A DNA stretch of 64,000 nt from Squalus acanthias. Taxonomy: Eukaryota. The translations under genes were made by a program, and so were the position numbers. Shown here in pieces: positions 10,867 through 64,000 of this stretch. Below the pieces are notes generated by a model. That model was given only the letters and a program-made list of their open reading frames with translations. It searched no databases and was not told where the DNA came from. The first letter of the stretch is position 1. Each line of letters starts with the position of its first letter. The stretch lies in contig CM059434.1 of assembly GCA_030390025.1 (NCBI GenBank), positions 45,074,001 to 45,138,000 on the forward strand, in the 5' to 3' direction.

Positions 10867-10976
10867 GGCCTGCTTGTGATTGCGTGTTTTGCTTTGGTTA
10901 AATCTCAGAATTCCTTTATATGGGTTTTTTTAAATTCTGAAATAGTTAGTATATTCTTTTATTTTGAGGGAAAAGA

Positions 10977-12999: not shown

Positions 13000-14273
13000 A
13001 CCCATCATGTGCTTGCTGACCTATATTCGCCACCGGTTAAGCAAAGCCTTCATTGTGAAACTCTCATTTTTGTCTTCAAATCCCCCCATGGCCTCCTCCC
13101 TCCCTATCTCTGTAATGTCCTCCAGCCCTACAACCCGCCGAGATATCTGCGCTCCTCTAAGTCTGGCCTATTGAGCACCTGATTTCAATCGATCCATCAA
13201 TCGTGGCCGTGCCTTCAGCTGCCAAGGCCCTGAGCGTTGGCATTCCCTCCATAAACATCTCCACCACTCGACATCTCTTCACTCGTTTATGACCCTCCTT
13301 AAAACGTACCTCTTTGACCAAGCTATTGGTCATCTGGCCAAAAATCACCTTATGTGGGTCCGTGTCAAAATGTGTTTTGTAAGGTTCCTGTGAAGTGCCT
13401 TTTACTATGTTAAAGTCGCTATATAAAGGCAAGTTATTGTTGTTTGTTGTTGTTGAATAAGGGAATGAGAAGGTTCTGGAGTTACTAATGTTGGAAGAAC
13501 AGTTCTTACAAAGTGAAGCACAATCAGTGAGCATTGCTGGTTTCCTCGGGCCCTGTTTTCTGCCCTGGCCTTCTCCTTCAGGTTACGTTAAGCAGCGACG
13601 ACGTTGAACAATGGGGTTTCGGTGATCACACAATGAGGCTTGGAGATAACTTGAGTCAGTGGAATTGATAATGAAACTTTTGCTGTGTCTCGTTCAGTTG
13701 TATTTGCAGTGGGTATAATGGATTCCGGCGCTTCCAGAGTTGCTAATGTTGGAAATACAGTGAATAGCATAAGTGAATGAATGAAAGGGAAGCAAACGAG
13801 CAGAGAATCAAATTGAATGCCAGATGTTTGCCATTTACTAGTGGGTCAAGTGTGGAGGAGCATGAACTGAGGTTTGCGCTCTCTCGTGGCCGCGGCGAGC
13901 ATAATTGTGAAAATTGGCGATTTTGGAACTCCAGTGGCTTCAGTGAGCAGCAGGGAGCAGTAAGAGTGAGTTGAATGTGACGGAGACAAAGTGTGGAATA
14001 TGGTAGTTGAATGCAGTGAAGATGATGAAGAGTCTGAATGTGCATGTGCGTGGAGGGCTGGGCAAGATTTAGGCATTGTAAAGTGTGAGGCTTTGTTGTA
14101 AATGCTGGTTGAGTTGTGGCGATGATATTAGATGTGAGAGGGGAAATCATTGCGGGTCGCAAGATTAGTGTGGTGGCTGAATGTGGTGAGAAAAGGCAAC
14201 GAGTTTGTTTGCAGTGTTGGCGATGGACACGTGTGGAGGTTTTTTGTTTGTTTGTTGTAAAGCAAAGAGTGGG

Positions 14274-14571
14274 AAAAGGATGCATCTCTCTGCATTGGCC
14301 AGGCGGCACTGTAGCCTCTATTCACAAGTGCGACCCGACTACTGAGCAGCACGGGGGCTTTGACCTGCTCCGTTTCCGACCTGGGCCAGTTCACCCCGCC
14401 TTATCCGACCTGGTGAGCCCAGGCTATCCTAGGACCACCATGTGGATACTGGTCTTAGTGCGGACACCCGATCGGCACAGAAGACAGCAGTCCAGAACTC
14501 CTGACCTCAAGCAATCCTGCAGCCTCAGCCTCCCAGCAGCGGGATCACAGGTACGCGCCACCGCACCCGGC
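14274..14571 (-). ncRNA. RN7SL: 7SL/SRP RNA, copy 1 (edge copy, 7 substitutions in its 3' half)
   Basis: Full-length 7SL. Differs from the array consensus at 14284, 14289, 14293, 14305, 14312, 14388 and 14400. Confidence 0.9.
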
Positions 14572-15609
14572 GAGTTTTGCTCTTGTTTCAGCAGCCTTCA
14601 GTTAAAAACGGCAGCAGCTGCTCTGCTGCACTGAGCAATACAGGTTTGATGCTGTGCTTCATTTACTCATCTGGTGTCATTGCATGCTGCTGTGACTCTA
14701 AGTAAGAGCATCAAGACAATATCAGTGATTGCACATTTCTCGGTCAAGACAACATTCCGAATCTATCCGGCTATACTAGCCTTCAGCGCAAGTATCAGTG
14801 CCTTGCAAAATGAGGCGTTGTGACAAGCAGCGTGTCGGTTGGCTGTCGTTCAGATTCCCGTTTGCTGCGAGGATGGCAGCACGGAAGAGCAGAGTCATTT
14901 CTGATGGAAAAATGCCTCACTGACGCACAGTTCTTACTAAGTGAAGCGGCCAAGGCACAATCAGTGAGCATTGCTGGTTTCCTCGGTCCCTGTTTTCTGC
15001 CCTGGCCTTCTCCTTCAGGTTACGTTAAGTAGCGACGACGTTGAACAATGGGGTTTCGGTGATCTCACAATGTGGCTTGGAGATAACTTGAGTCAGTGGA
15101 ATTTAGAATGAAACTTTTGCTGTGTCTCGTTCAATTGCATTTGCAGTGAGTATAATGCAGTCCGGAGCTTCCAGGGCTGCTAATGTTGGAAATGCAGCGA
15201 ATAGCATAAATGAATGAATGAAAGGGTAGGAAACGAGCACAGAGTCAGATTGAATGTGAGTGATTGCCAAACTAAATGTATGCCATTTAGTAGTGGGTCA
15301 AGTGTGGAGGAGAATGAAATGAGGTTTGCGCTCTCTCGTGGCCGCGGCGAGCATAATTGTGTAAAGTGGAGATTTTGTCAGTGCAGTGGCTGCAGTGAGC
15401 AGCAGGGAGCAGTAAGAGTGAGTTGAATGTGACGGAGACAAAGTGTGGAATATGGTAGTTGAATGCTGTGATGATGATGGGGAGACTGTGTGCATGTGCG
15501 TGGTGGGCTGCTGAAGATTTCGGTGTTGTAAAGTGTGAGGCTTTGTTGTGGCGATGATATTGGATGTGAGAGGGGAAATGATTGCGGGTCTCAAGATTAG
15601 TGTGGTGAG

Positions 15610-15696
15610 AAAAGGCAGCGAGTTTGATTGCAGTGTTGGCGATGGACACGTGTGGAGGTTTTTTGTTTGTTTGTTGTAAAGCAAAGAGTGGGAAAA
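15610..15696 (-). terminator. Pol III T4 terminator (15693-15696) and a likely backup T4 (15610-15613); repeated in each unit
   Basis: Minus strand ATCCTTTTCCCAC at the gene end, and the similar TGCCTTTTCTCAC about 80 nt downstream. Confidence 0.7.
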
Positions 15697-15990
15697 GGAT
15701 GCGTCTCACTGTATTGGCCAGGCTGCACTGCAGCCTCTATTCACAAGTGCGACCCGACTACTGAGCAGCACGGGGGCTTTGACCTGCTCCGTTTCCGACC
15801 TGGGCCGGTTCACCCCGCTTTATCCGACCTGGTGAGCCCAGGCTATCCTAGGACCACCATGTGGATACTGGTCTTAGTGCGGACACCCGATCGGCACAGA
15901 AGACAGCAGTCCAGAACTCCTGACCTCAAGCAATCCTGCAGCCTCAGCCTCCCAGCAGCGGGATCACAGGTACGCGCCACCGCACCCGGC
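15693..15990 (-). ncRNA. RN7SL: 7SL/SRP RNA, copy 2 (array consensus)
   Basis: Minus strand GCCGGGTGCGGTGGCGCGTACCTGTGATCCC...GCCGATCGGGTGTCCGCACTAAG...GGGGTGAACCGGCCCAGGTCGGAAACGGAGCAGGTCAAA...GAGACGCATCCTTTT. Colinear with vertebrate 7SL (Alu domain plus S domain, ~298 nt). Confidence 0.97.
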
Positions 15991-16050
15991 GAGTTTTGCT
16001 CTTGTTTCAGCAGCCTTCAGTTAAAAACGGCAGCAGCTGCTCTGCTGCAC
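15991..16050 (-). promoter_or_regulatory. Candidate 7SL upstream promoter region (repeated in every unit)
   Basis: TTTTTAA at -37..-31 and a GCAGCAG/CTGCTGC inverted repeat at -58..-40. Intragenic A-box-like GGGTGCGGTGG and B-box-like GAGTTCTGGAC. Function is inferred from position only. Confidence 0.35.
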
Positions 16051-17111
16051 TGAGCAATACAGGTTTGATGCTGTGCTTCATTTACTCATCTGGTGTCATT
16101 GCATGCTGCTGTGACTCTAAGTAAGAGCATCAAGACAATATCAGTGATTGCACATTTCTCGGTCAAGACAACATTCCGAATCTATCCGGCTATACTAGCC
16201 TTCAGCGCAAGTATCAGTGCCTTGCAAAATGAGGCGTTGTGACAAGCAGCGTGTCGGTTGGCTGTCGTTCAGATTCCCGTTTGCTGCGAGGATGGCAGCA
16301 CGGAAGAGCAGAGTCATTTCTGATGGAAAAATGCCTCACTGACGCACAGTTCTTACTAAGTGAAGCGGCCAAGGCACAATCAGTGAGCATTGCTGGTTTC
16401 CTCGGTCCCTGTTTTCTGCCCTGGCCTTCTCCTTCAGGTTACGTTAAGTAGCGACGACGTTGAACAATGGGGTTTCGGTGATCTCACAATGTGGCTTGGA
16501 GATAACTTGAGTCAGTGGAATTTAGAATGAAACTTTTGCTGTGTCTCGTTCAATTGCATTTGCAGTGAGTATAATGCAGTCCGGAGCTTCCAGGGCTGCT
16601 AATGTTGGAAATGCAGCGAATAGCATAAATGAATGAATGAAAGGGTAGGAAACGAGCACAGAGTCAGATTGAATGTGAGTGATTGCCAAACTAAATGTAT
16701 GCCATTTAGTAGTGGGTCAAGTGTGGAGGAGAATGAAATGAGGTTTGCGCTCTCTCGTGGCCGCGGCGAGCATAATTGTGTAAAGTGGAGATTTTGTCAG
16801 TGCAGTGGCTGCAGTGAGCAGCAGGGAGCAGTAAGAGTGAGTTGAATGTGACGGAGACAAAGTGTGGAATATGGTAGTTGAATGCTGTGATGATGATGGG
16901 GAGACTGTGTGCATGTGCGTGGTGGGCTGCTGAAGATTTCGGTGTTGTAAAGTGTGAGGCTTTGTTGTGGCGATGATATTGGATGTGAGAGGGGAAATGA
17001 TTGCGGGTCTCAAGATTAGTGTGGTGAGAAAAGGCAGCGAGTTTGATTGCAGTGTTGGCGATGGACACGTGTGGAGGTTTTTTGTTTGTTTGTTGTAAAG
17101 CAAAGAGTGGG

Positions 17112-17409
17112 AAAAGGATGCGTCTCACTGTATTGGCCAGGCTGCACTGCAGCCTCTATTCACAAGTGCGACCCGACTACTGAGCAGCACGGGGGCTTTG
17201 ACCTGCTCCGTTTCCGACCTGGGCCGGTTCACCCCGCTTTATCCGACCTGGTGAGCCCAGGCTATCCTAGGACCACCATGTGGATACTGGTCTTAGTGCG
17301 GACACCCGATCGGCACAGAAGACAGCAGTCCAGAACTCCTGACCTCAAGCAATCCTGCAGCCTCAGCCTCCCAGCAGCGGGATCACAGGTACGCGCCACC
17401 GCACCCGGC
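17112..17409 (-). ncRNA. RN7SL: 7SL/SRP RNA, copy 3
   Basis: Matches copy 2. Confidence 0.96.
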
Positions 17410-18530
17410 GAGTTTTGCTCTTGTTTCAGCAGCCTTCAGTTAAAAACGGCAGCAGCTGCTCTGCTGCACTGAGCAATACAGGTTTGATGCTGTGCTTCAT
17501 TTACTCATCTGGTGTCATTGCATGCTGCTGTGACTCTAAGTAAGAGCATCAAGACAATATCAGTGATTGCACATTTCTCGGTCAAGACAACATTCCGAAT
17601 CTATCCGGCTATACTAGCCTTCAGCGCAAGTATCAGTGCCTTGCAAAATGAGGCGTTGTGACAAGCAGCGTGTCGGTTGGCTGTCGTTCAGATTCCCGTT
17701 TGCTGCGAGGATGGCAGCACGGAAGAGCAGAGTCATTTCTGATGGAAAAATGCCTCACTGACGCACAGTTCTTACTAAGTGAAGCGGCCAAGGCACAATC
17801 AGTGAGCATTGCTGGTTTCCTCGGTCCCTGTTTTCTGCCCTGGCCTTCTCCTTCAGGTTAAGTTAAGTAGCGACGACGTTGAACAATGGGGTTTCGGTGA
17901 TCTCACAATGTGGCTTGGAGATAACTTGAGTCAGTGGAATTTAGAATGAAACTTTTGCTGTGTCTCGTTCAATTGCATTTGCAGTGAGTATAATGCAGAC
18001 CGGAGCTTCCAGGGCTGCTAATGTTGGAAATGCAGCGAATAGCATAAATGAATGAATGAAAGGGTAGGAAACGAGCACAGAGTCAGATTGAATGTGAGTG
18101 ATTGCCAAACTAAATGTATGCCATTTAGTAGTGGGTCAAGTGTGGAGGAGAATGAAATGAGGTTTGCGCTCTCTCGTGGCCGCGGCGAGCATAATTGTGT
18201 AAAGTGGAGATTTTGTCAGTGCAGTGGCTGCAGTGAGCAGCAGGGAGCAGTAAGAGTGAGTTGAATGTGACGGAGACAAAGTGTGGAATATGGTAGTTGA
18301 ATGCTGTGATGATGATGGGGAGACTGTGTGCATGTGCGTGGTGGGCTGCTGAAGATTTCGGTGTTGTAAAGTGTGAGGCTTTGTTGTGGCGATGATATTG
18401 GATGTGAGAGGGGAAATGATTGCGGGTCTCAAGATTAGTGTGGTGAGAAAAGGCAGCGAGTTTGATTGCAGTGTTGGCGATGGACACGTGTGGAGGTTTT
18501 TTGTTTGTTTGTTGTAAAGCAAAGAGTGGG

Positions 18531-18828
18531 AAAAGGATGCGTCTCACTGTATTGGCCAGGCTGCACTGCAGCCTCTATTCACAAGTGCGACCCGACTACT
18601 GAGCAGCACGGGGGCTTTGACCTGCTCCGTTTCCGACCTGGGCCGGTTCACCCCGCTTTATCCGACCTGGTGAGCCCAGGCTATCCTAGGACCACCATGT
18701 GGATACTGGTCTTAGTGCGGACACCCGATCGGCACAGAAGACAGCAGTCCAGAACTCCTGACCTCAAGCAATCCTGCAGCCTCAGCCTCCCAGCAGCGGG
18801 ATCACAGGTACGCGCCACCGCACCCGGC
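18531..18828 (-). ncRNA. RN7SL: 7SL/SRP RNA, copy 4
   Basis: Matches copy 2. Confidence 0.96.
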
Positions 18829-19949
18829 GAGTTTTGCTCTTGTTTCAGCAGCCTTCAGTTAAAAACGGCAGCAGCTGCTCTGCTGCACTGAGCAATACAG
18901 GTTTGATGCTGTGCTTCATTTACTCATCTGGTGTCATTGCATGCTGCTGTGACTCTAAGTAAGAGCATCAAGACAATATCAGTGATTGCACATTTCTCGG
19001 TCAAGACAACATTCCGAATCTATCCGGCTATACTAGCCTTCAGCGCAAGTATCAGTGCCTTGCAAAATGAGGCGTTGTGACAAGCAGCGTGTCGGTTGGC
19101 TGTCGTTCAGATTCCCGTTTGCTGCGAGGATGGCAGCACGGAAGAGCAGAGTCATTTCTGATGGAAAAATGCCTCACTGACGCACAGTTCTTACTAAGTG
19201 AAGCGGCCAAGGCACAATCAGTGAGCATTGCTGGTTTCCTCGGTCCCTGTTTTCTGCCCTGGCCTTCTCCTTCAGGTTACGTTAAGTAGCGACGACGTTG
19301 AACAATGGGGTTTCGGTGATCTCACAATGTGGCTTGGAGATAACTTGAGTCAGTGGAATTTAGAATGAAACTTTTGCTGTGTCTCGTTCAATTGCATTTG
19401 CAGTGAGTATAATGCAGTCCGGAGCTTCCAGGGCTGCTAATGTTGGAAATGCAGCGAATAGCATAAATGAATGAATGAAAGGGTAGGAAACGAGCACAGA
19501 GTCAGATTGAATGTGAGTGATTGCCAAACTAAATGTATGCCATTTAGTAGTGGGTCAAGTGTGGAGGAGAATGAAATGAGGTTTGCGCTCTCTCGTGGCC
19601 GCGGCGAGCATAATTGTGTAAAGTGGAGATTTTGTCAGTGCAGTGGCTGCAGTGAGCAGCAGGGAGCAGTAAGAGTGAGTTGAATGTGACGGAGACAAAG
19701 TGTGGAATATGGTAGTTGAATGCTGTGATGATGATGGGGAGACTGTGTGCATGTGCGTGGTGGGCTGCTGAAGATTTCGGTGTTGTAAAGTGTGAGGCTT
19801 TGTTGTGGCGATGATATTGGATGTGAGAGGGGAAATGATTGCGGGTCTCAAGATTAGTGTGGTGAGAAAAGGCAGCGAGTTTGATTGCAGTGTTGGCGAT
19901 GGACACGTGTGGAGGTTTTTTGTTTGTTTGTTGTAAAGCAAAGAGTGGG

Positions 19950-20247
19950 AAAAGGATGCGTCTCACTGTATTGGCCAGGCTGCACTGCAGCCTCTATTCA
20001 CAAGTGCGACCCGACTACTGAGCAGCACGGGGGCTTTGACCTGCTCCGTTCCCGACCTGGGCCGGTTCACCCCGCTTTATCCGACCTGGTGAGCCCAGGC
20101 TATCCTAGGACCACCATGTGGATACTGGTCTTAGTGCGGACACCCGATCGGCACAGAAGACAGCAGTCCAGAACTCCTGACCTCAAGCAATCCTGCAGCC
20201 TCAGCCTCCCAGCAGCGGGATCACAGGTACGCGCCACCGCACCCGGC
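19950..20247 (-). ncRNA. RN7SL: 7SL/SRP RNA, copy 5 (helix-8 loop GGAA)
   Basis: Matches copy 2 except T>C at 20051. Confidence 0.95.
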
Positions 20248-21368
20248 GAGTTTTGCTCTTGTTTCAGCAGCCTTCAGTTAAAAACGGCAGCAGCTGCTCT
20301 GCTGCACTGAGCAATACAGGTTTGATGCTGTGCTTCATTTACTCATCTGGTGTCATTGCATGCTGCTGTGACTCTAAGTAAGAGCATCAAGACAATATCA
20401 GTGATTGCACATTTCTCGGTCAAGACAACATTCCGAATCTATCCGGCTATACTAGCCTTCAGCGCAAGTATCAGTGCCTTGCAAAATGAGGCGTTGTGAC
20501 AAGCAGCGTGTCGGTTGGCTGTCGTTCAGATTCCCGTTTGCTGCGAGGATGGCAGCACGGAAGAGCAGAGTCATTTCTGATGGAAAAATGCCTCACTGAC
20601 GCACAGTTCTTACTAAGTGAAGCGGCCAAGGCACAATCAGTGAGCATTGCTGGTTTCCTCGGTCCCTGTTTTCTGCCCTGGCCTTCTCCTTCAGGTTACG
20701 TTAAGTAGCGACGACGTTGAACAATGGGGTTTCGGTGATCTCACAATGTGGCTTGGAGATAACTTGAGTCAGTGGAATTTAGAATGAAACTTTTGCTGTG
20801 TCTCGTTCAATTGCATTTGCAGTGAGTATAATGCAGTCCGGAGCTTCCAGGGCTGCTAATGTTGGAAATGCAGCGAATAGCATAAATGAATGAATGAAAG
20901 GGTAGGAAACGAGCACAGAGTCAGATTGAATGTGAGTGATTGCCAAACTAAATGTATGCCATTTAGTAGTGGGTCAAGTGTGGAGGAGAATGAAATGAGG
21001 TTTGCGCTCTCTCGTGGCCGCGGCGAGCATAATTGTGTAAAGTGGAGATTTTGTCAGTGCAGTGGCTGCAGTGAGCAGCAGGGAGCAGTAAGAGTGAGTT
21101 GAATGTGACGGAGACAAAGTGTGGAATATGGTAGTTGAATGCTGTGATGATGATGGGGAGACTGTGTGCATGTGCGCGGTGGGCTGCTGAAGATTTCGGT
21201 GTTGTAAAGTGTGAGGCTTTGTTGTGGCGATGATATTGGATGTGAGAGGGGAAATGATTGCGGGTCTCAAGATTAGTGTGGTGAGAAAAGGCAGCGAGTT
21301 TGATTGCAGTGTTGGCGATGGACACGTGTGGAGGTTTTTTGTTTGTTTGTTGTAAAGCAAAGAGTGGG

Positions 21369-21666
21369 AAAAGGATGCGTCTCACTGTATTGGCCAGGCT
21401 GCACTGCAGCCTCTATTCACAAGTGCGACCCGACTACTGAGCAGCACGGGGGCTTTGACCTGCTCCGTTTCCGACCTGGGCCGGTTCACCCCGCTTTATC
21501 CGACCTGGTGAGCCCAGGCTATCCTAGGACCACCATGTGGATACTGGTCTTAGTGCGGACACCCGATCGGCACAGAAGACAGCAGTCCAGAACTCCTGAC
21601 CTCAAGCAATCCTGCAGCCTCAGCCTCCCAGCAGCGGGATCACAGGTACGCGCCACCGCACCCGGC
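21369..21666 (-). ncRNA. RN7SL: 7SL/SRP RNA, copy 6
   Basis: Matches copy 2. Confidence 0.96.
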
Positions 21667-22784
21667 GAGTTTTGCTCTTGTTTCAGCAGCCTTCAGTTAA
21701 AAACGGCAGCAGCTGCTCTGCTGCACTGAGCAATACAGGTTTGATGCTGTGCTTCATTTACTCATCTGGTGTCATTGCATGCTGCTGTGACTCTAAGTAA
21801 GAGCATCAAGACAATATCAGTGATTGCACATTTCTCGGTCAAGACAACATTCCGAATCTATCCGGCTATACTAGCCTTCAGCGCAAGTATCAGTGCCTTG
21901 CAAAATGAGGCGCTGTGACAAGCAGCGTATCGGTTGGCTGTCGTTCAGATTCCCGTTTGCTGCGAGGATGGCAGCACGGAAGAGCAGAGTCATTTCTGAT
22001 GGAAAAATGCCTCACTGACGCACAGTTCTTACTAAGTGAAGCGGCCAAGGCACAATCAGTGAGCATTGCTGGTTTCCTCGGTCCCTGTTTTCTGCCCTGG
22101 CCTTCTCCTTCAGGTTACGTTAAGTAGCGACGACGTTGAACAATGGGGTTTCGGTGATCTCACAATGTGGCTTGGAGATAACTTGAGTCAGTGGAATTTA
22201 GAATGAAACTTTTGCTGTGTCTCGTTCAATTGCATTTGCAGTGAGTATAATGCAGTCCGGAGCTTCCAGGGCTGCTAATGTTGGAAATGCAGCGAATAGC
22301 ATAAATGAATGAATGAAAGGGTAGGAAACGAGCACAGAGTCAGATTGAATGTGAGTGATTGCCAAACTAAATGTATGCCATTTAGTAGTGGGTCAAGTGT
22401 GGAGGAGAATGAAATGAGGTTTGCGCTCTCTCGTGGCCGCGGCGAGCATAATTGTGTAAAGTGGAGATTTTGTCAGTGCAGTGGCTGCAGTGAGCAGCAG
22501 GGAGCAGTAAGAGTGAGTTGAATGTGACGGAGACAAAGTGTGGAATATGGTAGTTGAATGCTGTGATGATGATGGGGAGACTGTGTGCATGTGCGTGGTG
22601 GGCTGCTGAAGATTTCGGTGTTGTAAAGTGTGAGGCTTTGTGGCGATGATATTGGATGTGAGAGGGGAAATGATTGCGGGTCTCAAGATTAGTGTGGTGA
22701 GAAAAGGCAGCGAGTTTGATTGCAGTGTTGGCGATGGACACGTGTGGAGGTTTTTTGTTTGTTTGTTGTAAAGCAAAGAGTGGG

Positions 22785-23082
22785 AAAAGGATGCGTCTCA
22801 CTGTATTGGCCAGGCTGCACTGCAGCCTCTATTCACAAGTGCGACCCGACTACTGAGCAGCACGGGGGCTTTGACCTGCTCCGTTTCCGACCTGGGCCGG
22901 TTCACCCCGCTTTATCCGACCTGGTGAGCCCAGGCTATCCTAGGACCACCATGTGGATACTGGTCTTAGTGCGGACACCCGATCGGCACAGAAGACAGCA
23001 GTCCAGAACTCCTGACCTCAAGCAATCCTGCAGCCTCAGCCTCCCAGCAGCGGGATCACAGGTACGCGCCACCGCACCCGGC
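22785..23082 (-). ncRNA. RN7SL: 7SL/SRP RNA, copy 7
   Basis: Matches copy 2. Confidence 0.96.
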
Positions 23083-24205: not shown

Positions 24206-24504
24206 AAAAGGATGCGTCTCACTGTATTGGCCAGGCTGCACTGCAGCCTCTATTCACAAGTGCGACCCGACTACTGAGCAGCACGGGGGCTTTGACCTGC
24301 TCCGTTCCCGACCTGGGCCGGTTCACCCCGCTTTATCTGACCTGGTGAGCCCAGGCTATCCTAGGACCACCATGTGGATACTGGTCTTAGTGCGGACACC
24401 CGATCGGCACAGAAGACAGCAGTCCAGACACTCCTGACCTCAAGCAATCCTGCAGCCTCAGCCTCCCAGCAGCGGGATCACAGGTACGCGCCACCGCACC
24501 CGGC
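24206..24504 (-). ncRNA. RN7SL: 7SL/SRP RNA, copy 8 (GGAA loop, one further substitution, 1-nt insertion)
   Basis: Changes at 24307 and 24338, plus an insertion near 24429. Confidence 0.92.
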
Positions 24505-34141: not shown

Positions 34142-34440
34142 AAAAGGATGCGTCTCACTGTATTGGCCAGGCTGCACTGCAGCCTCTATTCACAAGTGCG
34201 ACCCGACTACTGAGCAGCACGGGGGCTTTGACCTGCTCCGTTTCCGACCTGGGCCGGTTCACCCCGCTTTATCCGACCTGGTGAGCCCAGGCTATCCTAG
34301 GACCACCATGCGGATACTGGTCTTAGTGCGGACACCCGATCGGCACAGAAGACAGCAGTCCAGAACTCCTGACCTCAAGCAATACCTGCAGCCTCAGCCT
34401 CCCAGCAGCGGGATCACAGGTACGCGCCACCGCACCCGGC
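34142..34440 (-). ncRNA. RN7SL: 7SL/SRP RNA, copy 15 (one substitution, 1-nt insertion)
   Basis: T>C at 34311 and an extra A at 34384. Confidence 0.93.
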
Positions 34441-39824: not shown

Positions 39825-40121
39825 AAAAGGATGCGTCTCACTGTATTGGCCAGGCTGCACTGCAGCCTCTATTCACAAGTGCGACCCGACTACTGAGCAG
39901 CACGGGGCTTTGACCTGCTCCGTTTCCGACCTGGGCCGGTTCACCCCGCTTTATCCGACCTGGTGAGCCCAGGCTATCCTAGGACCACCATGTGGATACT
40001 GGTCTTAGTGCGGACACCCGATCGGCACAGAAGACAGCAGTCCAGAACTCCTGACCTCAAGCAATCCTGCAGCCTCAGCCTCCCAGCAGCGGGATCACAG
40101 GTACGCGCCACCGCACCCGGC
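39825..40121 (-). ncRNA. RN7SL: 7SL/SRP RNA, copy 19 (1-nt homopolymer deletion)
   Basis: G5>G4 at 39904-39907; otherwise matches copy 2. Confidence 0.94.
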
Positions 40122-52608: not shown

Positions 52609-52906
52609 AAAAGGATGCGTCTCACTGTATTGGCCAGGCTGCACTGCAGCCTCTATTCACAAGTGCGACCCGACTACTGAGCAGCACGGGGGCTTTGACC
52701 TGCTCCGTTTCCGACCTGGGCCGGTTCACCCCGCTTTATCCGACCTGGTGAGCCCAGGCTATCCTAGGACCACCATGTGGATACTGGTCTTAGTGCGGAC
52801 ACCCGATCGGCACAGAAGACAGCAGTCCAGAACTCCTGACCTCAAGCAATCCTGCAGCCTCAGCCTCCCAGCAGCGGGATCACAGGTACGCGCCACCGCA
52901 CCCGGC
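52609..52906 (-). ncRNA. RN7SL: 7SL/SRP RNA, copy 28
   Basis: Matches copy 2. Confidence 0.96.
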
Positions 52907-54029: not shown

Positions 54030-54327
54030 AAAAGGATGCGTCTCACTGTATTGGCCAGGCTGCACTGCAGCCTCTATTCACAAGTGCGACCCGACTACTG
54101 AGCAGCACGGGGGCTTTGACCTGCTCCGTTTCCGACCTGGGCCGGTTCACCCCGCTTTATCCGACCTGGTGAGCCCAGGCTATCCTAGGACCACCATGTG
54201 GATACTGGTCTTAGTGCGGACACCCGATCGGCACAGAAGACAGCAGTCCAGAACTCCTGACCTCAAGCAATCCTGCAGCCTCAGCCTCCCAGCAGCGGGA
54301 TCACAGGTACGCGCCACCGCACCCGGC
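54030..54327 (-). ncRNA. RN7SL: 7SL/SRP RNA, copy 29
   Basis: Matches copy 2. Confidence 0.96.
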
Positions 54328-55450
54328 GAGTTTTGCTCTTGTTTCAGCAGCCTTCAGTTAAAAACGGCAGCAGCTGCTCTGCTGCACTGAGCAATACAGG
54401 TTTGATGCTGTGCTTCATTTACTCATCTGGTGTCATTGCATGCTGCTGTGACTCTAAGTAAGAGCATCAAGACAATATCAGTGATTGCACATTTCTCGGT
54501 CAAGACAACATTCCGAATCTATCCGGCTATACTAGCCTTCAGCGCAAGTATCAGTGCCTTGCAAAATGAGGCGTTGTGACAAGCAGCGTGTCGGTTGGCT
54601 GTCGTTCAGATTCCCGTTTGCTGCGAGGATGGCAGCACGGAAGAGCAGAGTCATTTCTGATGGAAAAATGCCTCACTGACGCACAGTTCTTACTAAGTGA
54701 AGCGGCCAAGGCACACAATCAGTGAGCATTGCTGGTTTCCTCGGTCCCTGTTTTCTGCCCTGGCCTTCTCCTTCAGGTTACGTTAAGTAGCGACGACGTT
54801 GAACAATGGGGTTTCGGTGATCTCACAATGTGGCTTGGAGATAACTTGAGTCAGTGGAATTTAGAATGAAACTTTTGCTGTGTCTCGTTCAATTGCATTT
54901 GCAGTGAGTATAATGCAGTCCGGAGCTTCCAGGGCTGCTAATGTTGGAAATGCAGCGAATAGCATAAATGAATGAATGAAAGGGTAGGAAACGAGCACAG
55001 AGTCAGATTGAATGTGAGTGATTGCCAAACTAAATGTATGCCATTTAGTAGTGGGTCAAGTGTGGAGGAGAATGAAATGAGGTTTGCGCTCTCTCGTGGC
55101 CGCGGCGAGCATAATTGTGTAAAGTGGAGATTTTGTCAGTGCAGTGGCTGCAGTGAGCAGCAGGGAGCAGTAAGAGTGAGTTGAATGTGACGGAGACAAA
55201 GTGTGGAATATGGTAGTTGAATGCTGTGATGATGATGGGGAGACTGTGTGCATGTGCGTGGTGGGCTGCTGAAGATTTCGGTGTTGTAAAGTGTGAGGCT
55301 TTGTTGTGGCGATGATATTGGATGTGAGAGGGGAAATGATTGCGGGTCTCAAGATTAGTGTGGTGAGAAAAGGCAGCGAGTTTGATTGCAGTGTTGGCGA
55401 TGGACACGTGTGGAGGTTTTTTGTTTGTTTGTTGTAAAGCAAAGAGTGGG

Positions 55451-55748
55451 AAAAGGATGCGTCTCACTGTATTGGCCAGGCTGCACTGCAGCCTCTATTC
55501 ACAAGTGCGACCCGACTACTGAGCAGCACGGGGGCTTTGACCTGCTCCGTTTCCGACCTGGGCCGGTTCACCCCGCTTTATCCGACCTGGTGAGCCCAGG
55601 CTATCCTAGGACCACCATGTGGATACTGGTCTTAGTGCGGACACCCGATCGGCACAGAAGACAGCAGTCCAGAACTCCTGACCTCAAGCAATCCTGCAGC
55701 CTCAGCCTCCCAGCAGCGGGATCACAGGTACGCGCCACCGCACCCGGC
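55451..55748 (-). ncRNA. RN7SL: 7SL/SRP RNA, copy 30
   Basis: Matches copy 2. Confidence 0.96.
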
Positions 55749-56871
55749 GAGTTTTGCTCTTGTTTCAGCAGCCTTCAGTTAAAAACGGCAGCAGCTGCTC
55801 TGCTGCACTGAGCAATACAGGTTTGATGCTGTGCTTCATTTACTCATCTGGTGTCATTGCATGCTGCTGTGACTCTAAGTAAGAGCATCAAGACAATATC
55901 AGTGATTGCACATTTCTCGGTCAAGACAACATTCCGAATCTATCCGGCTATACTAGCCTTCAGCGCAAGTATCAGTGCCTTGCAAAATGAGGCGTTGTGA
56001 CAAGCAGCGTGTCGGTTGGCTGTCGTTCAGATTCCCGTTTGCTGCGAGGATGGCAGCACGGAAGAGCAGAGTCATTTCTGATGGAAAAATGCCTCACTGA
56101 CGCACAGTTCTTACTAAGTGAAGCGGCCAAGGCACACAATCAGTGAGCATTGCTGGTTTCCTCGGTCCCTGTTTTCTGCCCTGGCCTTCTCCTTCAGGTT
56201 ACGTTAAGTAGCGACGACGTTGAACAATGGGGTTTCGGTGATCTCACAATGTGGCTTGGAGATAACTTGAGTCAGTGGAATTTAGAATGTAACTTTTGCT
56301 GTGTCTCGTTCAATTGCATTTGCAGTGAGTATAATGCAGTCCGGAGCTTCCAGGGCTGCTAATGTTGGAAATGCAGCGAATAGCATAAATGAATGAATGA
56401 AAGGGTAGGAAACGAGCACAGAGTCAGATTGAATGTGAGTGATTGCCAAACTAAATGTATGCCATTTAGTAGTGGGTCAAGTGTGGAGGAGAATGAAATG
56501 AGGTTTGCGCTCTCTCGTGGCCGCGGCGAGCATAATTGTGTAAAGTGGAGATTTTGTCAGTGCAGTGGCTGCAGTGAGCAGCAGGGAGCAGTAAGAGTGA
56601 GTTGAATGTGACGGAGACAAAGTGTGGAATATGGTAGTTGAATGCTGTGATGATGATGGGGAGACTGTGTGCATGTGCGTGGTGGGCTGCTGAAGATTTC
56701 GGTGTTGTAAAGTGTGAGGCTTTGTTGTGGCGATGATATTGGATGTGAGAGGGGAAATGATTGCGGGTCTCAAGATTAGTGTGGTGAGAAAAGGCAGCGA
56801 GTTTGATTGCAGTGTTGGCGATGGACACGTGTGGAGGTTTTTTGTTTGTTTGTTGTAAAGCAAAGAGTGGG

Positions 56872-57169
56872 AAAAGGATGCGTCTCACTGTATTGGCCAG
56901 GCTGCACTGCAGCCTCTATTCACAAGTGCGACCCGACTACTGAGCAGCACGGGGGCTTTGACCTGCTCCGTTTCCGACCTGGGCCGGTTCACCCCGCTTT
57001 ATCCGACCTGGTGAGCCCAGGCTATCCTAGGACCACCATGTGGATACTGGTCTTAGTGCGGACACCCGATCGGCACAGAAGACAGCAGTCCAGAACTCCT
57101 GACCTCAAGCAATCCTGCAGCCTCAGCCTCCCAGCAGCGGGATCACAGGTACGCGCCACCGCACCCGGC
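56872..57169 (-). ncRNA. RN7SL: 7SL/SRP RNA, copy 31
   Basis: Matches copy 2. Confidence 0.96.
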
Positions 57170-58292
57170 GAGTTTTGCTCTTGTTTCAGCAGCCTTCAGT
57201 TAAAAACGGCAGCAGCTGCTCTGCTGCACTGAGCAATACAGGTTTGATGCTGTGCTTCATTTACTCATCTGGTGTCATTGCATGCTGCTGTGACTCTAAG
57301 TAAGAGCATCAAGACAATATCAGTGATTGCACATTTCTCGGTCAAGACAACATTCCGAATCTATCCGGCTATACTAGCCTTCAGCGCAAGTATCAGTGCC
57401 TTGCAAAATGAGGCGTTGTGACAAGCAGCGTGTCGGTTGGCTGTCGTTCAGATTCCCGTTTGCTGCGAGGATGGCAGCACGGAAGAGCAGAGTCATTTCT
57501 GATGGAAAAATGCCTCACTGACGCACAGTTCTTACTAAGTGAAGCGGCCAAGGCACACAATCAGTGAGCATTGCTGGTTTCCTCGGTCCCTGTTTTCTGC
57601 CCTGGCCTTCTCCTTCAGGTTACGTTAAGTAGCGACGACGTTGAACAATGGGGTTTCGGTGATCTCACAATGTGGCTTGGAGATAACTTGAGTCAGTGGA
57701 ATTTAGAATGAAACTTTTGCTGTGTCTCGTTCAATTGCATTTGCAGTGAGTATAATGCAGTCCGGAGCTTCCAGGGCTGCTAATGTTGGAAATGCAGCGA
57801 ATAGCATAAATGAATGAATGAAAGGGTAGGAAACGAGCACAGAGTCAGATTGAATGTGAGTGATTGCCAAACTAAATGTATGCCATTTAGTAGTGGGTCA
57901 AGTGTGGAGGAGAATGAAATGAGGTTTGCGCTCTCTCGTGGCCGCGGCGAGCATAATTGTGTAAAGTGGAGATTTTGTCAGTGCAGTGGCTGCAGTGAGC
58001 AGCAGGGAGCAGTAAGAGTGAGTTGAATGTGACGGAGACAAAGTGTGGAATATGGTAGTTGAATGCTGTGATGATGATGGGGAGACTGTGTGCATGTGCG
58101 TGGTGGGCTGCTGAAGATTTCGGTGTTGTAAAGTGTGAGGCTTTGTTGTGGCGATGATATTGGATGTGAGAGGGGAAATGATTGCGGGTCTCAAGATTAG
58201 TGTGGTGAGAAAAGGCAGCGAGTTTGATTGCAGTGTTGGCGATGGACACGTGTGGAGGTTTTTTGTTTGTTTGTTGTAAAGCAAAGAGTGGG

Positions 58293-58590
58293 AAAAGGAT
58301 GCGTCTCACTGTATTGGCCAGGCTGCACTGCAGCCTCTATTCACAAGTGCGACCCGACTACTGAGCAGCACGGGGGCTTTGACCTGCTCCGTTTCCGACC
58401 TGGGCCGGTTCACCCCGCTTTATCCGACCTGGTGAGCCCAGGCTATCCTAGGACCACCATGTGGATACTGGTCTTAGTGCGGACACCCGATCGGCACAGA
58501 AGACAGCAGTCCAGAACTCCTGACCTCAAGCAATCCTGCAGCCTCAGCCTCCCAGCAGCGGGATCACAGGTACGCGCCACCGCACCCGGC
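58293..58590 (-). ncRNA. RN7SL: 7SL/SRP RNA, copy 32
   Basis: Matches copy 2. Confidence 0.96.
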
Positions 58591-59713
58591 GAGTTTTGCT
58601 CTTGTTTCAGCAGCCTTCAGTTAAAAACGGCAGCAGCTGCTCTGCTGCACTGAGCAATACAGGTTTGATGCTGTGCTTCATTTACTCATCTGGTGTCATT
58701 GCATGCTGCTGTGACTCTAAGTAAGAGCATCAAGACAATATCAGTGATTGCACATTTCTCGGTCAAGACAACATTCCGAATCTATCCGGCTATACTAGCC
58801 TTCAGCGCAAGTATCAGTGCCTTGCAAAATGAGGCGTTGTGACAAGCAGCGTGTCGGTTGGCTGTCGTTCAGATTCCCGTTTGCTGCGAGGATGGCAGCA
58901 CGGAAGAGCAGAGTCATTTCTGATGGAAAAATGCCTCACTGACGCACAGTTCTTACTAAGTGAAGCGGCCAAGGCACACAATCAGTGAGCATTGCTGGTT
59001 TCCTCGGTCCCTGTTTTCTGCCCTGGCCTTCTCCTTCAGGTTACGTTAAGTAGCGACGACGTTGAACAATGGGGTTTCGGTGATCTCACAATGTGGCTTG
59101 GAGATAACTTGAGTCAGTGGAATTTAGAATGTAACTTTTGCTGTGTCTCGTTCAATTGCATTTGCAGTGAGTATAATGCAGTCCGGAGCTTCCAGGGCTG
59201 CTAATGTTGGAAATGCAGCGAATAGCATAAATGAATGAATGAAAGGGTAGGAAACGAGCACAGAGTCAGATTGAATGTGAGTGATTGCCAAACTAAATGT
59301 ATGCCATTTAGTAGTGGGTCAAGTGTGGAGGAGAATGAAATGAGGTTTGCGCTCTCTCGTGGCCGCGGCGAGCATAATTGTGTAAAGTGGAGATTTTGTC
59401 AGTGCAGTGGCTGCAGTGAGCAGCAGGGAGCAGTAAGAGTGAGTTGAATGTGACGGAGACAAAGTGTGGAATATGGTAGTTGAATGCTGTGATGATGATG
59501 GGGAGACTGTGTGCATGTGCGTGGTGGGCTGCTGAAGATTTCGGTGTTGTAAAGTGTGAGGCTTTGTTGTGGCGATGATATTGGATGTGAGAGGGGAAAT
59601 GATTGCGGGTCTCAAGATTAGTGTGGTGAGAAAAGGCAGCGAGTTTGATTGCAGTGTTGGCGATGGACACGTGTGGAGGTTTTTTGTTTGTTTGTTGTAA
59701 AGCAAAGAGTGGG

Positions 59714-60011
59714 AAAAGGATGCGTCTCACTGTATTGGCCAGGCTGCACTGCAGCCTCTATTCACAAGTGCGACCCGACTACTGAGCAGCACGGGGGCTT
59801 TGACCTGCTCCGTTTCCGACCTGGGCCGGTTCACCCCGCTTTATCCGACCTGGTGAGCCCAGGCTATCCTAGGACCACCATGTGGATACTGGTCTTAGTG
59901 CGGACACCCGATCGGCACAGAAGACAGCAGTCCAGAACTCCTGACCTCAAGCAATCCTGCAGCCTCAGCCTCCCAGCAGCGGGATCACAGGTACGCGCCA
60001 CCGCACCCGGC
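59714..60011 (-). ncRNA. RN7SL: 7SL/SRP RNA, copy 33
   Basis: Matches copy 2. Confidence 0.96.
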
Positions 60012-61134
60012 GAGTTTTGCTCTTGTTTCAGCAGCCTTCAGTTAAAAACGGCAGCAGCTGCTCTGCTGCACTGAGCAATACAGGTTTGATGCTGTGCTTC
60101 ATTTACTCATCTGGTGTCATTGCATGCTGCTGTGACTCTAAGTAAGAGCATCAAGACAATATCAGTGATTGCACATTTCTCGGTCAAGACAACATTCCGA
60201 ATCTATCCGGCTATACTAGCCTTCAGCGCAAGTATCAGTGCCTTGCAAAATGAGGCGTTGTGACAAGCAGCGTGTCGGTTGGCTGTCGTTCAGATTCCCG
60301 TTTGCTGCGAGGATGGCAGCACGGAAGAGCAGAGTCATTTCTGATGGATAAATGCCTCACTGACGCACAGTTCTTACTAAGTGAAGCGGCCAAGGCACAC
60401 AATCAGTGAGCATTGCTGGTTTCCTCGGTCCCTGTTTTCTGCCCTGGCCTTCTCCTTCAGGTTACGTTAAGTAGCGACGACGTTGAACAATGGGGTTTCG
60501 GTGATCTCACAATGTGGCTTGGAGATAACTTGAGTCAGTGGAATTTAGAATGTAACTTTTGCTGTGTCTCGTTCAATTGCATTTGCAGTGAGTATAATGC
60601 AGTCCGGAGCTTCCAGGGCTGCTAATGTTGGAAATGCAGCGAATAGCATAAATGAATGAATGAAAGGGTAGGAAACGAGCACAGAGTCAGATTGAATGTG
60701 AGTGATTGCCAAACTAAATGTATGCCATTTAGTAGTGGGTCAAGTGTGGAGGAGAATGAAATGAGGTTTGCGCTCTCTCGTGGCCGCGGCGAGCATAATT
60801 GTGTAAAGTGGAGATTTTGTCAGTGCAGTGGCTGCAGTGAGCAGCAGGGAGCAGTAAGAGTGAGTTGAATGTGACGGAGACAAAGTGTGGAATATGGTAG
60901 TTGAATGCTGTGATGATGATGGGGAGACTGTGTGCATGTGCGTGGTGGGCTGCTGAAGATTTCGGTGTTGTAAAGTGTGAGGCTTTGTTGTGGCGATGAT
61001 ATTGGATGTGAGAGGGGAAATGATTGCGGGTCTCAAGATTAGTGTGGTGAGAAAAGGCAGCGAGTTTGATTGCAGTGTTGGCGATGGACACGTGTGGAGG
61101 TTTTTTGTTTGTTTGTTGTAAAGCAAAGAGTGGG

Positions 61135-61432
61135 AAAAGGATGCGTCTCACTGTATTGGCCAGGCTGCACTGCAGCCTCTATTCACAAGTGCGACCCGAC
61201 TACTGAGCAGCACGGGGGCTTTGACCTGCTCCGTTTCCGACCTGGGCCGGTTCACCCCGCTTTATCCGACCTGGTGAGCCCAGGCTATCCTAGGACCACC
61301 ATGTGGATACTGGTCTTAGTGCGGACACCCGATCGGCACAGAAGACAGCAGTCCAGAACTCCTGACCTCAAGCAATCCTGCAGCCTCAGCCTCCCAGCAG
61401 CGGGATCACAGGTACGCGCCACCGCACCCGGC
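61135..61432 (-). ncRNA. RN7SL: 7SL/SRP RNA, copy 34
   Basis: Matches copy 2. Confidence 0.96.
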
Positions 61433-62555
61433 GAGTTTTGCTCTTGTTTCAGCAGCCTTCAGTTAAAAACGGCAGCAGCTGCTCTGCTGCACTGAGCAAT
61501 ACAGGTTTGATGCTGTGCTTCATTTACTCATCTGGTGTCATTGCATGCTGCTGTGACTCTAAGTAAGAGCATCAAGACAATATCAGTGATTGCACATTTC
61601 TCGGTCAAGACAACATTCCGAATCTATCCGGCTATACTAGCCTTCAGCGCAAGTATCAGTGCCTTGCAAAATGAGGCGTTGTGACAAGCAGCGTGTCGGT
61701 TGGCTGTCGTTCAGATTCCCGTTTGCTGCGAGGATGGCAGCACGGAAGAGCAGAGTCATTTCTGATGGATAAATGCCTCACTGACGCACAGTTCTTACTA
61801 AGTGAAGCGGCCAAGGCACACAATCAGTGAGCATTGCTGGTTTCCTCGGTCCCTGTTTTCTGCCCTGGCCTTCTCCTTCAGGTTACGTTAAGTAGCGACG
61901 ACGTTGAACAATGGGGTTTCGGTGATCTCACAATGTGGCTTGGAGATAACTTGAGTCAGTGGAATTTAGAATGTAACTTTTGCTGTGTCTCGTTCAATTG
62001 CATTTGCAGTGAGTATAATGCAGTCCGGAGCTTCCAGGGCTGCTAATGTTGGAAATGCAGCGAATAGCATAAATGAATGAATGAAAGGGTAGGAAACGAG
62101 CACAGAGTCAGATTGAATGTGAGTGATTGCCAAACTAAATGTATGCCATTTAGTAGTGGGTCAAGTGTGGAGGAGAATGAAATGAGGTTTGCGCTCTCTC
62201 GTGGCCGCGGCGAGCATAATTGTGTAAAGTGGAGATTTTGTCAGTGCAGTGGCTGCAGTGAGCAGCAGGGAGCAGTAAGAGTGAGTTGAATGTGACGGAG
62301 ACAAAGTGTGGAATATGGTAGTTGAATGCTGTGATGATGATGGGGAGACTGTGTGCATGTGCGTGGTGGGCTGCTGAAGATTTCGGTGTTGTAAAGTGTG
62401 AGGCTTTGTTGTGGCGATGATATTGGATGTGAGAGGGGAAATGATTGCGGGTCTCAAGATTAGTGTGGTGAGAAAAGGCAGCGAGTTTGATTGCAGTGTT
62501 GGCGATGGACACGTGTGGAGGTTTTTTGTTTGTTTGTTGTAAAGCAAAGAGTGGG

Positions 62556-62853
62556 AAAAGGATGCGTCTCACTGTATTGGCCAGGCTGCACTGCAGCCTC
62601 TATTCACAAGTGCGACCCGACTACTGAGCAGCACGGGGGCTTTGACCTGCTCCGTTTCCGACCTGGGCCGGTTCACCCCGCTTTATCCGACCTGGTGAGC
62701 CCAGGCTATCCTAGGACCACCATGTGGATACTGGTCTTAGTGCGGACACCCGATCGGCACAGAAGACAGCAGTCCAGAACTCCTGACCTCAAGCAATCCT
62801 GCAGCCTCAGCCTCCCAGCAGCGGGATCACAGGTACGCGCCACCGCACCCGGC
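62556..62853 (-). ncRNA. RN7SL: 7SL/SRP RNA, copy 35
   Basis: Matches copy 2. Confidence 0.96.
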
Positions 62854-63976
62854 GAGTTTTGCTCTTGTTTCAGCAGCCTTCAGTTAAAAACGGCAGCAGC
62901 TGCTCTGCTGCACTGAGCAATACAGGTTTGATGCTGTGCTTCATTTACTCATCTGGTGTCATTGCATGCTGCTGTGACTCTAAGTAAGAGCATCAAGACA
63001 ACATCAGTGATTGCACATTTCTCGGTCAAGACAACATTCCGAATCTATCCGGCTATACTAGCCTTCAGCGCAAGTATCAGTGCCTTGCAAAATGAGGCGT
63101 TGTGACAAGCAGCGTGTCGGTTGGCTGTCGTTCAGATTCCCGTTTGCTGCGAGGATGGCAGCACGGAAGAGCAGAGTCATTTCTGATGGATAAATGCCTC
63201 ACTGACGCACAGTTCTTACTAAGTGAAGCGGCCAAGGCACACAATCAGTGAGCATTGCTGGTTTCCTCGGTCCCTGTTTTCTGCCCTGGCCTTCTCCTTC
63301 AGGTTACGTTAAGTAGCGACGACGTTGAACAATGGGGTTTCGGTGATCTCACAATGTGGCTTGGAGATAACTTGAGTCAGTGGAATTTAGAATGTAACTT
63401 TTGCTGTGTCTCGTTCAATTGCATTTGCAGTGAGTATAATGCAGTCCGGAGCTTCCAGGGCTGCTAATGTTGGAAATGCAGCGAATAGCATAAATGAATG
63501 AATGAAAGGGTAGGAAACGAGCACAGAGTCAGATTGAATGTGAGTGATTGCCAAACTAAATGTATGCCATTTAGTAGTGGGTCAAGTGTGGAGGAGAATG
63601 AAATGAGGTTTGCGCTCTCTCGTGGCCGCGGCGAGCATAATTGTGTAAAGTGGAGATTTTGTCAGTGCAGTGGCTGCAGTGAGCAGCAGGGAGCAGTAAG
63701 AGTGAGTTGAATGTGACGGAGACAAAGTGTGGAATATGGTAGTTGAATGCTGTGATGATGATGGGGAGACTGTGTGCATGTGCGTGGTGGGCTGCTGAAG
63801 ATTTCGGTGTTGTAAAGTGTGAGGCTTTGTTGTGGCGATGATATTGGATGTGAGAGGGGAAATGATTGCGGGTCTCAAGATTAGTGTGGTGAGAAAAGGC
63901 AGCGAGTTTGATTGCAGTGTTGGCGATGGACACGTGTGGAGGTTTTTTGTTTGTTTGTTGTAAAGCAAAGAGTGGG

Positions 63977-64000
63977 AAAAGGATGCGTCTCACTGTATTG
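63977..64000 (-). ncRNA. RN7SL: 7SL/SRP RNA, copy 36 (3' end only, cut by the window edge)
   Basis: AAAAGGATGCGTCTCACTGTATTG equals the last 24 nt of the consensus gene. Confidence 0.85.

Follow-up and report, generated by a model that had tools for sequence, protein, structure and literature searches.

A 73-kb tandem array of variant 7SL RNA genes beside a solitary canonical gene in Squalus acanthias: a candidate oocyte source of SRP RNA

7SL RNA provides the backbone for the particle that directs new proteins into the secretory pathway. In the cartilaginous fish Squalus acanthias, it is encoded by a tandem array and by a single gene 38 kb away. The two types display the clustered versus solitary arrangement of maternal-type ncRNA genes, with 51 copies against one and 42 fixed differences between them. 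Because this layout matches that of zebrafish (10.1101/869651), we consider the array to be the likely oocyte or germline source of SRP RNA, while the single gene is likely somatic.

Extent and uniformity of the array

Rfam cmscan of the window, i.e., the whole 64-kb stretch of DNA analysed, yields 35 full-length Metazoa_SRP matches (RF00017, model positions 1–299), all on the minus strand and all scoring 226–240 bits against a gathering cut-off of 70 (35/35). These scores bear out the first-pass annotation, which had described at least 35 full-length 7SL genes in 1.42-kb units and had named the covariance-model score of the 298-nt segment as a check. The array fills 13499–64000 (minus strand) and continues past the window, with the first gene at 14274–14571, the last complete one at 62556–62853, and gene 5′ ends at 14571, 15990, 17409 ... 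62853. Head-to-tail units of 1416–1422 bp consist of a 298-nt gene and a ~1.12-kb spacer. A representative array-type gene with a T4 run at its end occupies 15693–15990 (minus strand; cmscan and alignment), and a representative spacer (14572–15692, minus strand, ~1.12 kb) comprises the 3′ flank of one gene and the 5′ flank of the next.

Within the window, 30 of the 35 genes are identical, and the 34 full units show a mean pairwise difference of 2.8 bases and 13 distinct sequences. According to cmscan and alignment, the gene at 19950–20247 carries one substitution, that at 34142–34440 one inserted base and one substitution, and that at 39825–40121 a one-base deletion (all minus strand). In the most divergent internal unit, the gene (24206–24504, minus strand) shows two substitutions and an extra base. 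The window edge splits a 36th gene, the 3′ end of which lies at 63977–64000 (minus strand; full gene C10:45137977-45138274). From here, the array runs on for ~22 kb to a total of 51 genes at G000:C10:45088274-45159586, 46 of them identical. Its right limit lies at G000:C10:45160355, resulting in a span of ~73 kb that is bounded on both sides. At the left end, sequence comparison reveals a terminal, partly escaped unit (13499–14571, minus strand) formed by the gene 14274–14571 and a truncated spacer, in agreement with the diverged, truncated unit annotated earlier near 13500. Decayed spacer relics flank the array on both sides. Tandem Repeats Finder, at a period limit of 500, overlooks the 1.42-kb array. 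Positions 1–13498 hold LINE-rich DNA, including an RVT_1 frame at 7761–9734, and are part of the 38 kb between the array and the solitary gene; the protein-atlas labels of the LINE left of the array are chordate or eukaryote only.

Unit identity is ~99.8% and the mean difference across the array is 3.2, with 2.0 between neighbouring and 5.5 between distant units. The farther apart two units lie in the array, the more they differ (rho 0.59, reached in 0 of 2000 permutations). Moreover, the 50 full units comprise 20 distinct sequences, shared variants form local clines, and no more than four identical neighbours occur in a row. The array thus combines near-identical units, neighbour-biased similarity, and diverged ends, the features of concerted evolution in tandem arrays, and the earlier proposal of concerted evolution stands on unit identity and on the effect of distance.

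Array type and solitary gene

One canonical 7SL gene lies outside the window at G000:C10:45050284-45050581 (plus strand) and shares 86% identity with the array type (42 differences). A genome-wide count of an exact 24-base core motif gives 50 occurrences, one in the solitary gene and the others in 49 of the 51 array genes, and by this count there are two 7SL types only. Searching the genome with the full gene gives 69–71 candidates against 52 known genes; the best 25–48 matches were scored in the genome searches, and the unscored surplus may be decayed 7SL copies. The array gene is a separate 7SL variant and not a copy of the canonical gene. Thus, the term “dosage-amplified SRP RNA locus” of the first-pass annotation captures the array and is incomplete as to its genes, which differ in sequence, promoter, and helix-6 loop.

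The solitary gene bears the hallmarks of a housekeeping gene. It carries the CRE TGACGTCA at −51, which is also the position that PMC7279448 gives for mammalian 7SL genes. Further, its surroundings are CpG-rich (CpG o/e 1.08 and 68% GC over 700 bp), and it is arranged head-to-head with an RPS13 gene, identified by an exon of the ribosomal S15/RPS13 family (E=2e-5; a 39-aa piece below the Pfam cut-off). HSPA8 as SNORD14 host is ruled out at this position, where the exon matches that same family.

In the array type, no CRE is found within 200 bp upstream of the gene, and a T-rich stretch lies at −36. No 5′ homology between the two types is detectable, with 138 of 200 shuffles scoring equally well. 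The internal region that we take to contain the A and B boxes is 1–2 bases off the solitary gene. The array type ends in a T4 terminator, followed by a second T4 80 nt on, while the solitary gene has a T6. Downstream, a common 3′ flank shows 62% identity over the sole alignable ~180–182 columns and is collinear. The copies occupy one locus and share this flank with the solitary gene, unlike retrocopies or SINEs, which are dispersed, A-tailed, and devoid of a common flank. The spacer as a dispersed transposon is likewise ruled out: Its promoter-proximal 500 bp give 53 candidates genome-wide, and all 40 that were scored lie in the array.

The Alu domain contains UGUGA at positions 23–27, an instance of the UGUNR motif (PMC2905702), and the local fold of the array type, with helices 3–4, equals that of the solitary gene. 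Helix 8 is intact, as positions 175–225 form a 51-nt invariant block between the types that covers the SRP54-binding loops and the GNRA apical loop. In helix 6, the apical loop at 15843–15846 (minus strand, aligned with the solitary gene) reads AUAG, as opposed to GGAA in the solitary gene, with the third-position adenosine retained. The array type therefore has no GNAR tetraloop at the SRP19 site on helix 6, where the GNAR rule applies (PMC4615810). A natural exception is the AAAG loop of Thermoplasmatales (archaeal) SRP RNAs (PMC2905702).

Among 120 modelled pairs, 97 are canonical in the array type and 99 in the solitary gene, with six lost and four gained in the former. Random placement of the 42 changes leaves 85.8 ± 3.0 canonical pairs, and only 8 of 20,000 placements reach 97. 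Four double compensatory changes occur (81 of 20,000 random placements), and local folding adds a fifth in helix 4. The test uses a structure line rebuilt from cmscan output and does not assign changes to either lineage; unconstrained MFE folds of the whole molecule are uninformative. Additionally, the terminal unit differs from the array type at 7 of 298 gene bases (2.3%) and at 55 of 741 aligned spacer bases (7.4%) plus indels, a contrast (Fisher p=0.0013) to which a gradient of conversion from the inside of the array may contribute. CpG o/e is 0.65 in the spacer; the flank windows have a median of 0.32, and 12 of 152 reach the spacer value. Changes are no more frequent at CpG sites than elsewhere (4/48 versus 54/682). 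On these small numbers, the pattern would fit low germline methylation. Since the 42 differences keep the SRP fold while the common 3′ flank has decayed to 62%, the array type looks like an old, selected paralogue that arose via local DNA duplication and was homogenised by concerted evolution.

Proposed origin and use of the array

We propose that the solitary gene was duplicated locally, at the DNA level and in inverted orientation, and that the array began with this event. The array type would then have gained a different upstream promoter without CRE, and unequal crossing-over or gene conversion among neighbours would maintain its uniformity. If zebrafish SRP RNA and Xenopus oocyte 5S are taken as models, Pol III may transcribe the array in oocytes, stocking SRP beside stored ribosomes, and the embryo would switch to the single gene later. 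Retention of helix 8, of the Alu domain, and of the clamp adenosine in helix 6 leads us to predict that the variant RNA assembles SRP, perhaps with changed SRP19 affinity. The helix-6 loop speaks against the oocyte reading insofar as it departs from the GNAR rule. The six lost pairs, the T4 terminator, the single 45S rDNA type among the loci compared, the elasmobranch 5S classes, and, in zebrafish, the intact-looking “unexpressed” variants and the occurrence of “maternal” RNAs in testis count against it as well.

Loss of the CRE and of the GNAR loop, together with the T4 terminator, would also suit a silent or once-functional paralogue that was neutrally amplified as a satellite. The decayed relics on both sides show expansion as well as contraction, and zebrafish possesses an intact, barely expressed SRP-RNA copy (10.1101/869651). 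Nevertheless, such an unexpressed type seems unlikely, given that the changes are fold-preserving and compensatory, that the gene is much better conserved than the flank, and that CpG decay is absent. Ubiquitous dosage amplification, which would make the array the main 7SL source in every tissue in the manner of a U2 or 5S array, agrees with its homogeneity and intact genes and has a parallel in the 821-bp U2 tandem array of the same genome (32 of the 48 matches listed). Dosage alone, however, predicts an array of the canonical type, whereas here a canonical gene, 14% divergent, has persisted with a CpG-island promoter and the conserved CRE, and this reading, too, is rather unlikely.

That the RNA is expressed but exapted, as an SRP9/14-binding regulator, in translation or elsewhere, instead of part of a complete SRP, appears more improbable still. 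The changed SRP19 loop and the normal Alu-domain fold would allow it, and rodent 4.5SH, with hundreds of genes in 4–5-kb tandem repeats according to PMC7279448, offers a precedent; yet the S domain is full length and includes the invariant helix-8 block, and AAAG loops exist in natural SRP RNAs (PMC2905702). Assembly over-expansion from a few real copies is highly implausible. A nearly identical 73-kb repeat would invite it, but the many distinct unit sequences, the local clines, the diverged ends, and gap-free sequence (0 N bases in 244 kb around the array, within a 134.5-Mb contig) argue against it. Further, 11 of 21 listed sequencing runs contain at least half the words of a 1,111-base stretch of gene and spacer. 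These runs stem from five studies with at least three organism labels, and one of them may be the source sample; they show that the unit exists elsewhere rather than its copy number. No RNA run is among those listed as containing it, which speaks neither for nor against expression. Five additional runs under four other organism labels contain 0.21–0.27 of the query words, approximately the share of the gene, while the solitary type could account for only ~0.02 through the shared 51-nt block; runs at or below 0.20 were disregarded. These shares hint, as a lead, at conservation of the array-type gene in other species.

Clustered 7SL genes are known, and the novelty implied by the first-pass annotation was overstated in light of zebrafish, where 67 maternal SRP-RNA genes lie in clusters and a single gene is somatic (10.1101/869651). 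Our literature searches turned up no homogeneous 7SL array in cartilaginous fish that is 14% divergent and non-GNAR, and maternal SRP RNA solely in that one zebrafish preprint. According to a 2024 preprint, two full rRNA sets are known from zebrafish alone, apart from Plasmodium and Xenopus 5S (PMC11383705). A second lineage that appears to have an origin of its own would show repeated evolution of oocyte-type SRP RNA copies, and an SRP RNA that has naturally lost the GNAR loop puts the accepted SRP19 recognition rule to the test in a vertebrate. It is conceivable, though doubtful, that a germline-specific SRP, GNAR-less and functionally distinct (dormant or differently tuned) in the egg, evolved independently of zebrafish in cartilaginous fish along with a germline RNase P RNA. 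If true, maternal-type translation RNAs would be a recurrent vertebrate invention and not a zebrafish peculiarity. If the array is ubiquitous or silent, it is a curiosity of genome organisation. The 42 fixed differences separate the types in any RNA-seq run, so dosage and specialisation are directly testable.

Comparison with known systems

RNase P RNA is encoded by a solitary gene and by a clustered second type of 80% identity, which has its own elements that we take to be PSE/TATA-like. For 7SK, one full gene is found among nine matches, and U2 comprises a tandem array plus dispersed copies (48 matches listed). No second 45S rDNA type is present among nine full-score 5.8S loci compared (40 candidates scored), which show 0–2 differences in 5.8S and flanks of 96.8–99.8% or more; with a single type among these loci, the genome falls short of the complete dual ribosome system of zebrafish. 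No promoter motif was found that the 7SL array has in common with either the RNase P cluster or the U2 array.

In zebrafish, maternal expression was established by RNA-seq, intact-looking “unexpressed” variants exist, and “maternal” RNAs occur in testis too (10.1101/869651). The likeness comprises many clustered variant copies (67 there, 51 here) with a solitary gene that adjoins the start of a housekeeping gene (emc10 there, RPS13 here), types that differ in the Alu and S domains alike, and a second RNase P RNA type, which resembles the rpph1 and rpph1-dis pair (10.1101/869651). In contrast, zebrafish has three clusters at ≥91% identity and types that diverge by ~7%, compared with one homogeneous array and 14% here; expression is demonstrated there and predicted here, and a second 45S rDNA type is seen in zebrafish but not among the loci compared here. 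The position of array and single gene at one locus with a common 3′ flank points to an origin separate from that in zebrafish.

Xenopus oocyte 5S genes form large tandem arrays. As is proposed here for 7SL, the oocyte class of 5S arose by duplication of a Pol III gene of the somatic type (10.1101/869651, PMC3123226), while the RNA and the promoter type differ (7SL being a type-2 hybrid with upstream CRE), and divergence here is 14%. In elasmobranchs, PMC3123226 reports 5S rDNA classes that do not correspond to oocyte and somatic types. Rodent 4.5SH likewise traces back to 7SL and is a tandemly arrayed Pol III gene, but derives from the B1 SINE, has a CRE-like site at −51, and forms 4–5-kb units, as described in PMC7279448, whereas the genes here are full-length 298-nt 7SL without CRE. 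Human has few functional 7SL genes (PMC4383904, PMC10498592). With canonical vertebrate 7SL (human RN7SL1-3), the array type shares the full model match, internal promoter boxes, and a T-run terminator and differs in the missing CRE and GNAR loop, while the promoter layout of the solitary gene matches the canonical one.

A homogenised array of variant 7SL genes

The Rfam search recovers 35 complete Metazoa_SRP genes in the window (14274 to 62853, minus strand), all scoring 226–240 bits against a cut-off of 70, in agreement with the first-pass annotation of at least 35 full-length genes in nearly identical 1.42-kb units. The unit measures 1416–1422 bp, the 34 full window units differ by a mean of 2.8 bases, and 30 of the 35 genes are identical. 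The window spans G000:C10:45074001–45138000. With 100 kb downstream and 80 kb upstream of it included, the array, as counted from the 3.71-Gb assembly, comprises 51 genes (contig C10:45088274 to 45159586), contains no N, and is flanked on both sides by non-array DNA. Of the 51 genes, 46 are identical; among the 50 full units there are 20 distinct sequences.

Variants common to several units form local clines across the array. Neighbouring units differ by 2.0 bases versus 5.5 between the most distant (rho 0.59; 0/2000 permutations), a bias that bears out the suggested concerted evolution. Further, runs of identical adjacent units do not exceed four, and clear divergence marks the terminal unit on the left (gene at 14274–14571). 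These features point to local unequal crossing-over or conversion rather than a duplicated assembly path and make an assembly artefact highly improbable. Moreover, 11 of 21 public runs listed, from five studies with at least three organism labels, contain at least half of the words in a stretch of 1,111 bases covering gene and spacer, and one of them may be the source. The array is real and well supported.

CpG o/e of the spacer is 0.65. Across 152 flank windows the median is 0.32, and 12 windows attain the spacer's value. CpG sites have changed no faster than others (4/48 versus 54/682; 2/16 versus 19/210 in a spacer relic). Together, both observations hint at low germline methylation of the array.

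Two 7SL types with two promoters

Among the genome-wide SRP matches listed, the highest-scoring one lies outside the array, 38 kb from its end, and is a solitary canonical 7SL gene on the plus strand (C10:45050284–45050581, L021:1501–1798; 270 bits). Its identity to the array type is 85.9% (42 differences). The arrayed copies are not those of the standard gene, and the dosage-amplified SRP RNA locus first proposed describes the locus only in part. Assembly-wide, exact matches to a 24-base core motif number 50, one in the solitary gene and the others in 49 array genes.

The solitary gene lies at a CpG island (o/e 1.08, GC 68%) and carries TGACGTCA, a CRE, at −51; its helix-6 loop is GGAA and its terminator T6. 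A second CGTCA is seen at −109. Mammalian 7SL genes have TGACGTCA at −51/−44, and its mutation lowered in vitro transcription 2.5-fold (PMC7279448). In the array gene, the 200 bp upstream lack a CRE and contain a T-rich stretch at −36; its helix-6 loop reads AUAG, and it ends in a T4 terminator. The locus combines two 7SL types, two promoters, and a homogenised array.

SRP19 binds the helix-6 GNAR loop and exposes the third-position adenine that pairs with the helix-8 loop (PMC4615810). In the array type, three of four loop bases are changed and this adenine is kept; AAAG is found at this loop in Thermoplasmatales SRP RNAs (PMC2905702). An SRP built on the array-type RNA is predicted to function, though perhaps with altered tuning.

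Of the 120 pairs in the Rfam structure, reconstructed from the cmscan line, 99 are canonical in the solitary gene and 97 in the array type; random placement of the 42 changes yields 85.8 ± 3.0, with 97 reached in 8/20,000 trials, a result that fits selection on structure. Four double compensatory changes separate the types (81/20,000 random trials), alongside 11 one-sided pair-keeping changes, six pairs lost, four gained, and two non-pairs in both. Eight changes fall at unpaired positions; when helix 4 is folded locally, two of these eight pair with each other as a fifth compensatory change. Positions 175–225 are invariant. This test assigns the changes to neither the array nor the solitary lineage. 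The terminal unit, in which 7/298 gene bases differ versus 55/741 in the truncated spacer (p=0.0013), bears on the array lineage alone, although its gene is the part closest to the homogenised interior.

Origin and surroundings of the array

Over 180 nt, the spacer runs collinear with the 3′ flank of the solitary gene, similarly spaced from the gene in both cases (112/182 columns identical; score 71 versus 31 ± 4 in shuffles, 0/200 as good), which argues for DNA-level duplication and not retroposition. The 5′ flanks show no detectable homology (138/200 shuffles as good). A 235-bp spacer relic, 87% identical, is located 760 bp downstream of the solitary gene (C10:45051339–45051572), and weaker ones lie outside the present array (C10:45065950–45066013; 45160566–45161230), all in the array's orientation. 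Hence, a tail-to-tail arrangement of the solitary gene with the array, or with its founder, likely existed earlier. Today, LINE-rich DNA occupies the gap, including a 658-codon open frame for a reverse transcriptase (RVT_1; window 7761–9734, plus strand), one of many LINE pieces. Both 7SL types depart from the Rfam consensus in the same way within helix 7 and have the same one-base gap, which would fit duplication within this lineage rather than an origin common with the zebrafish clusters. A GC-rich 76-bp unit is also present in four identical copies (window 4365–4666).

Head-to-head with the solitary gene, in a common CpG island, lies a minus-strand gene with a ribosomal S15/RPS13-family exon, which hosts SNORD14 (U14) in three copies within or near its exons (stretches L049:7561–7656, L049:8005–8100, and L048:622–714, minus strand). 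Minus-strand PI3-kinase exons, best matching PI3K-C2alpha, follow 17–20 kb past the array's far end (G000:C10:45177638–45180823; L014, L015). The locus genes are vertebrate-like, and the LINE is chordate-type. The repeats would suit a cartilaginous fish, in line with the first-pass annotation.

Possible function and known systems

In zebrafish, the egg and early embryo draw on 67 clustered SRP-RNA genes on chr11 before a single chr3 gene takes over, and maternal ncRNA genes are generally clustered, somatic ones solitary (10.1101/869651). On this model, the array would probably be the oocyte or germline SRP RNA type. That it forms a germline SRP that is distinct in function and evolved independently appears unlikely. 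A silent paralogue, to be set beside the retained pairing of the array type, is rather improbable. Ubiquitous dosage would draw on the amplification, is at odds with the divergence from the standard gene, and seems improbable; an exapted regulator, which the altered helix-6 loop might accommodate, is quite improbable.

RNase P RNA likewise occurs in two types, 80% identical: a solitary one of 322 nt (G000:C6:125607111–125607432; L054) and a second of 296 nt with three copies in 7.3 kb (C2:18720852–18728126; L055, L057, L058), where 50 kb including 500 N were covered and copies may exceed three. Upstream PSE/TATA-like elements are presumably intact in two of these three. The second type has two dispersed copies, on C2417 (with an A-rich tail) and C78. 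The two types parallel zebrafish rpph1 and rpph1-dis, the maternal RNase P RNA there being 80% identical (10.1101/869651). The 7SK control gives one full gene and eight weaker scattered matches. Nine full-score 5.8S loci, among the matches listed, are of one type, which counts against a full dual system here, as do elasmobranch 5S classes, which reportedly do not follow oocyte/somatic types (PMC3123226).

U2 snRNA forms a tandem array of at least 32 copies with an 821-bp unit (G000:C27:16099915–16125551; L060–L065); a second, lower-scoring U2 type is spaced at 10–160 kb on C12 and C27. The 45S rDNA units lie 18–25 kb apart, with an orientation switch within the contig (G000:C38:8560–121190; L075–L080), and 14.5 kb apart on C1087.

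Full-text literature searches, with most subscription journals outside their coverage, revealed no description of tandemly arrayed 7SL genes in a cartilaginous fish; for clustered vertebrate SRP-RNA genes, only the zebrafish preprint 10.1101/869651 emerged among the matches listed, judged by titles and abstract starts. A further precedent, for a 7SL derivative in array form, comes from the rodent 4.5SH tandem genes (PMC7279448). Clustered 7SL genes are already known: zebrafish has clustered maternal SRP-RNA genes and one somatic gene, and here a 51-gene array accompanies a solitary gene.
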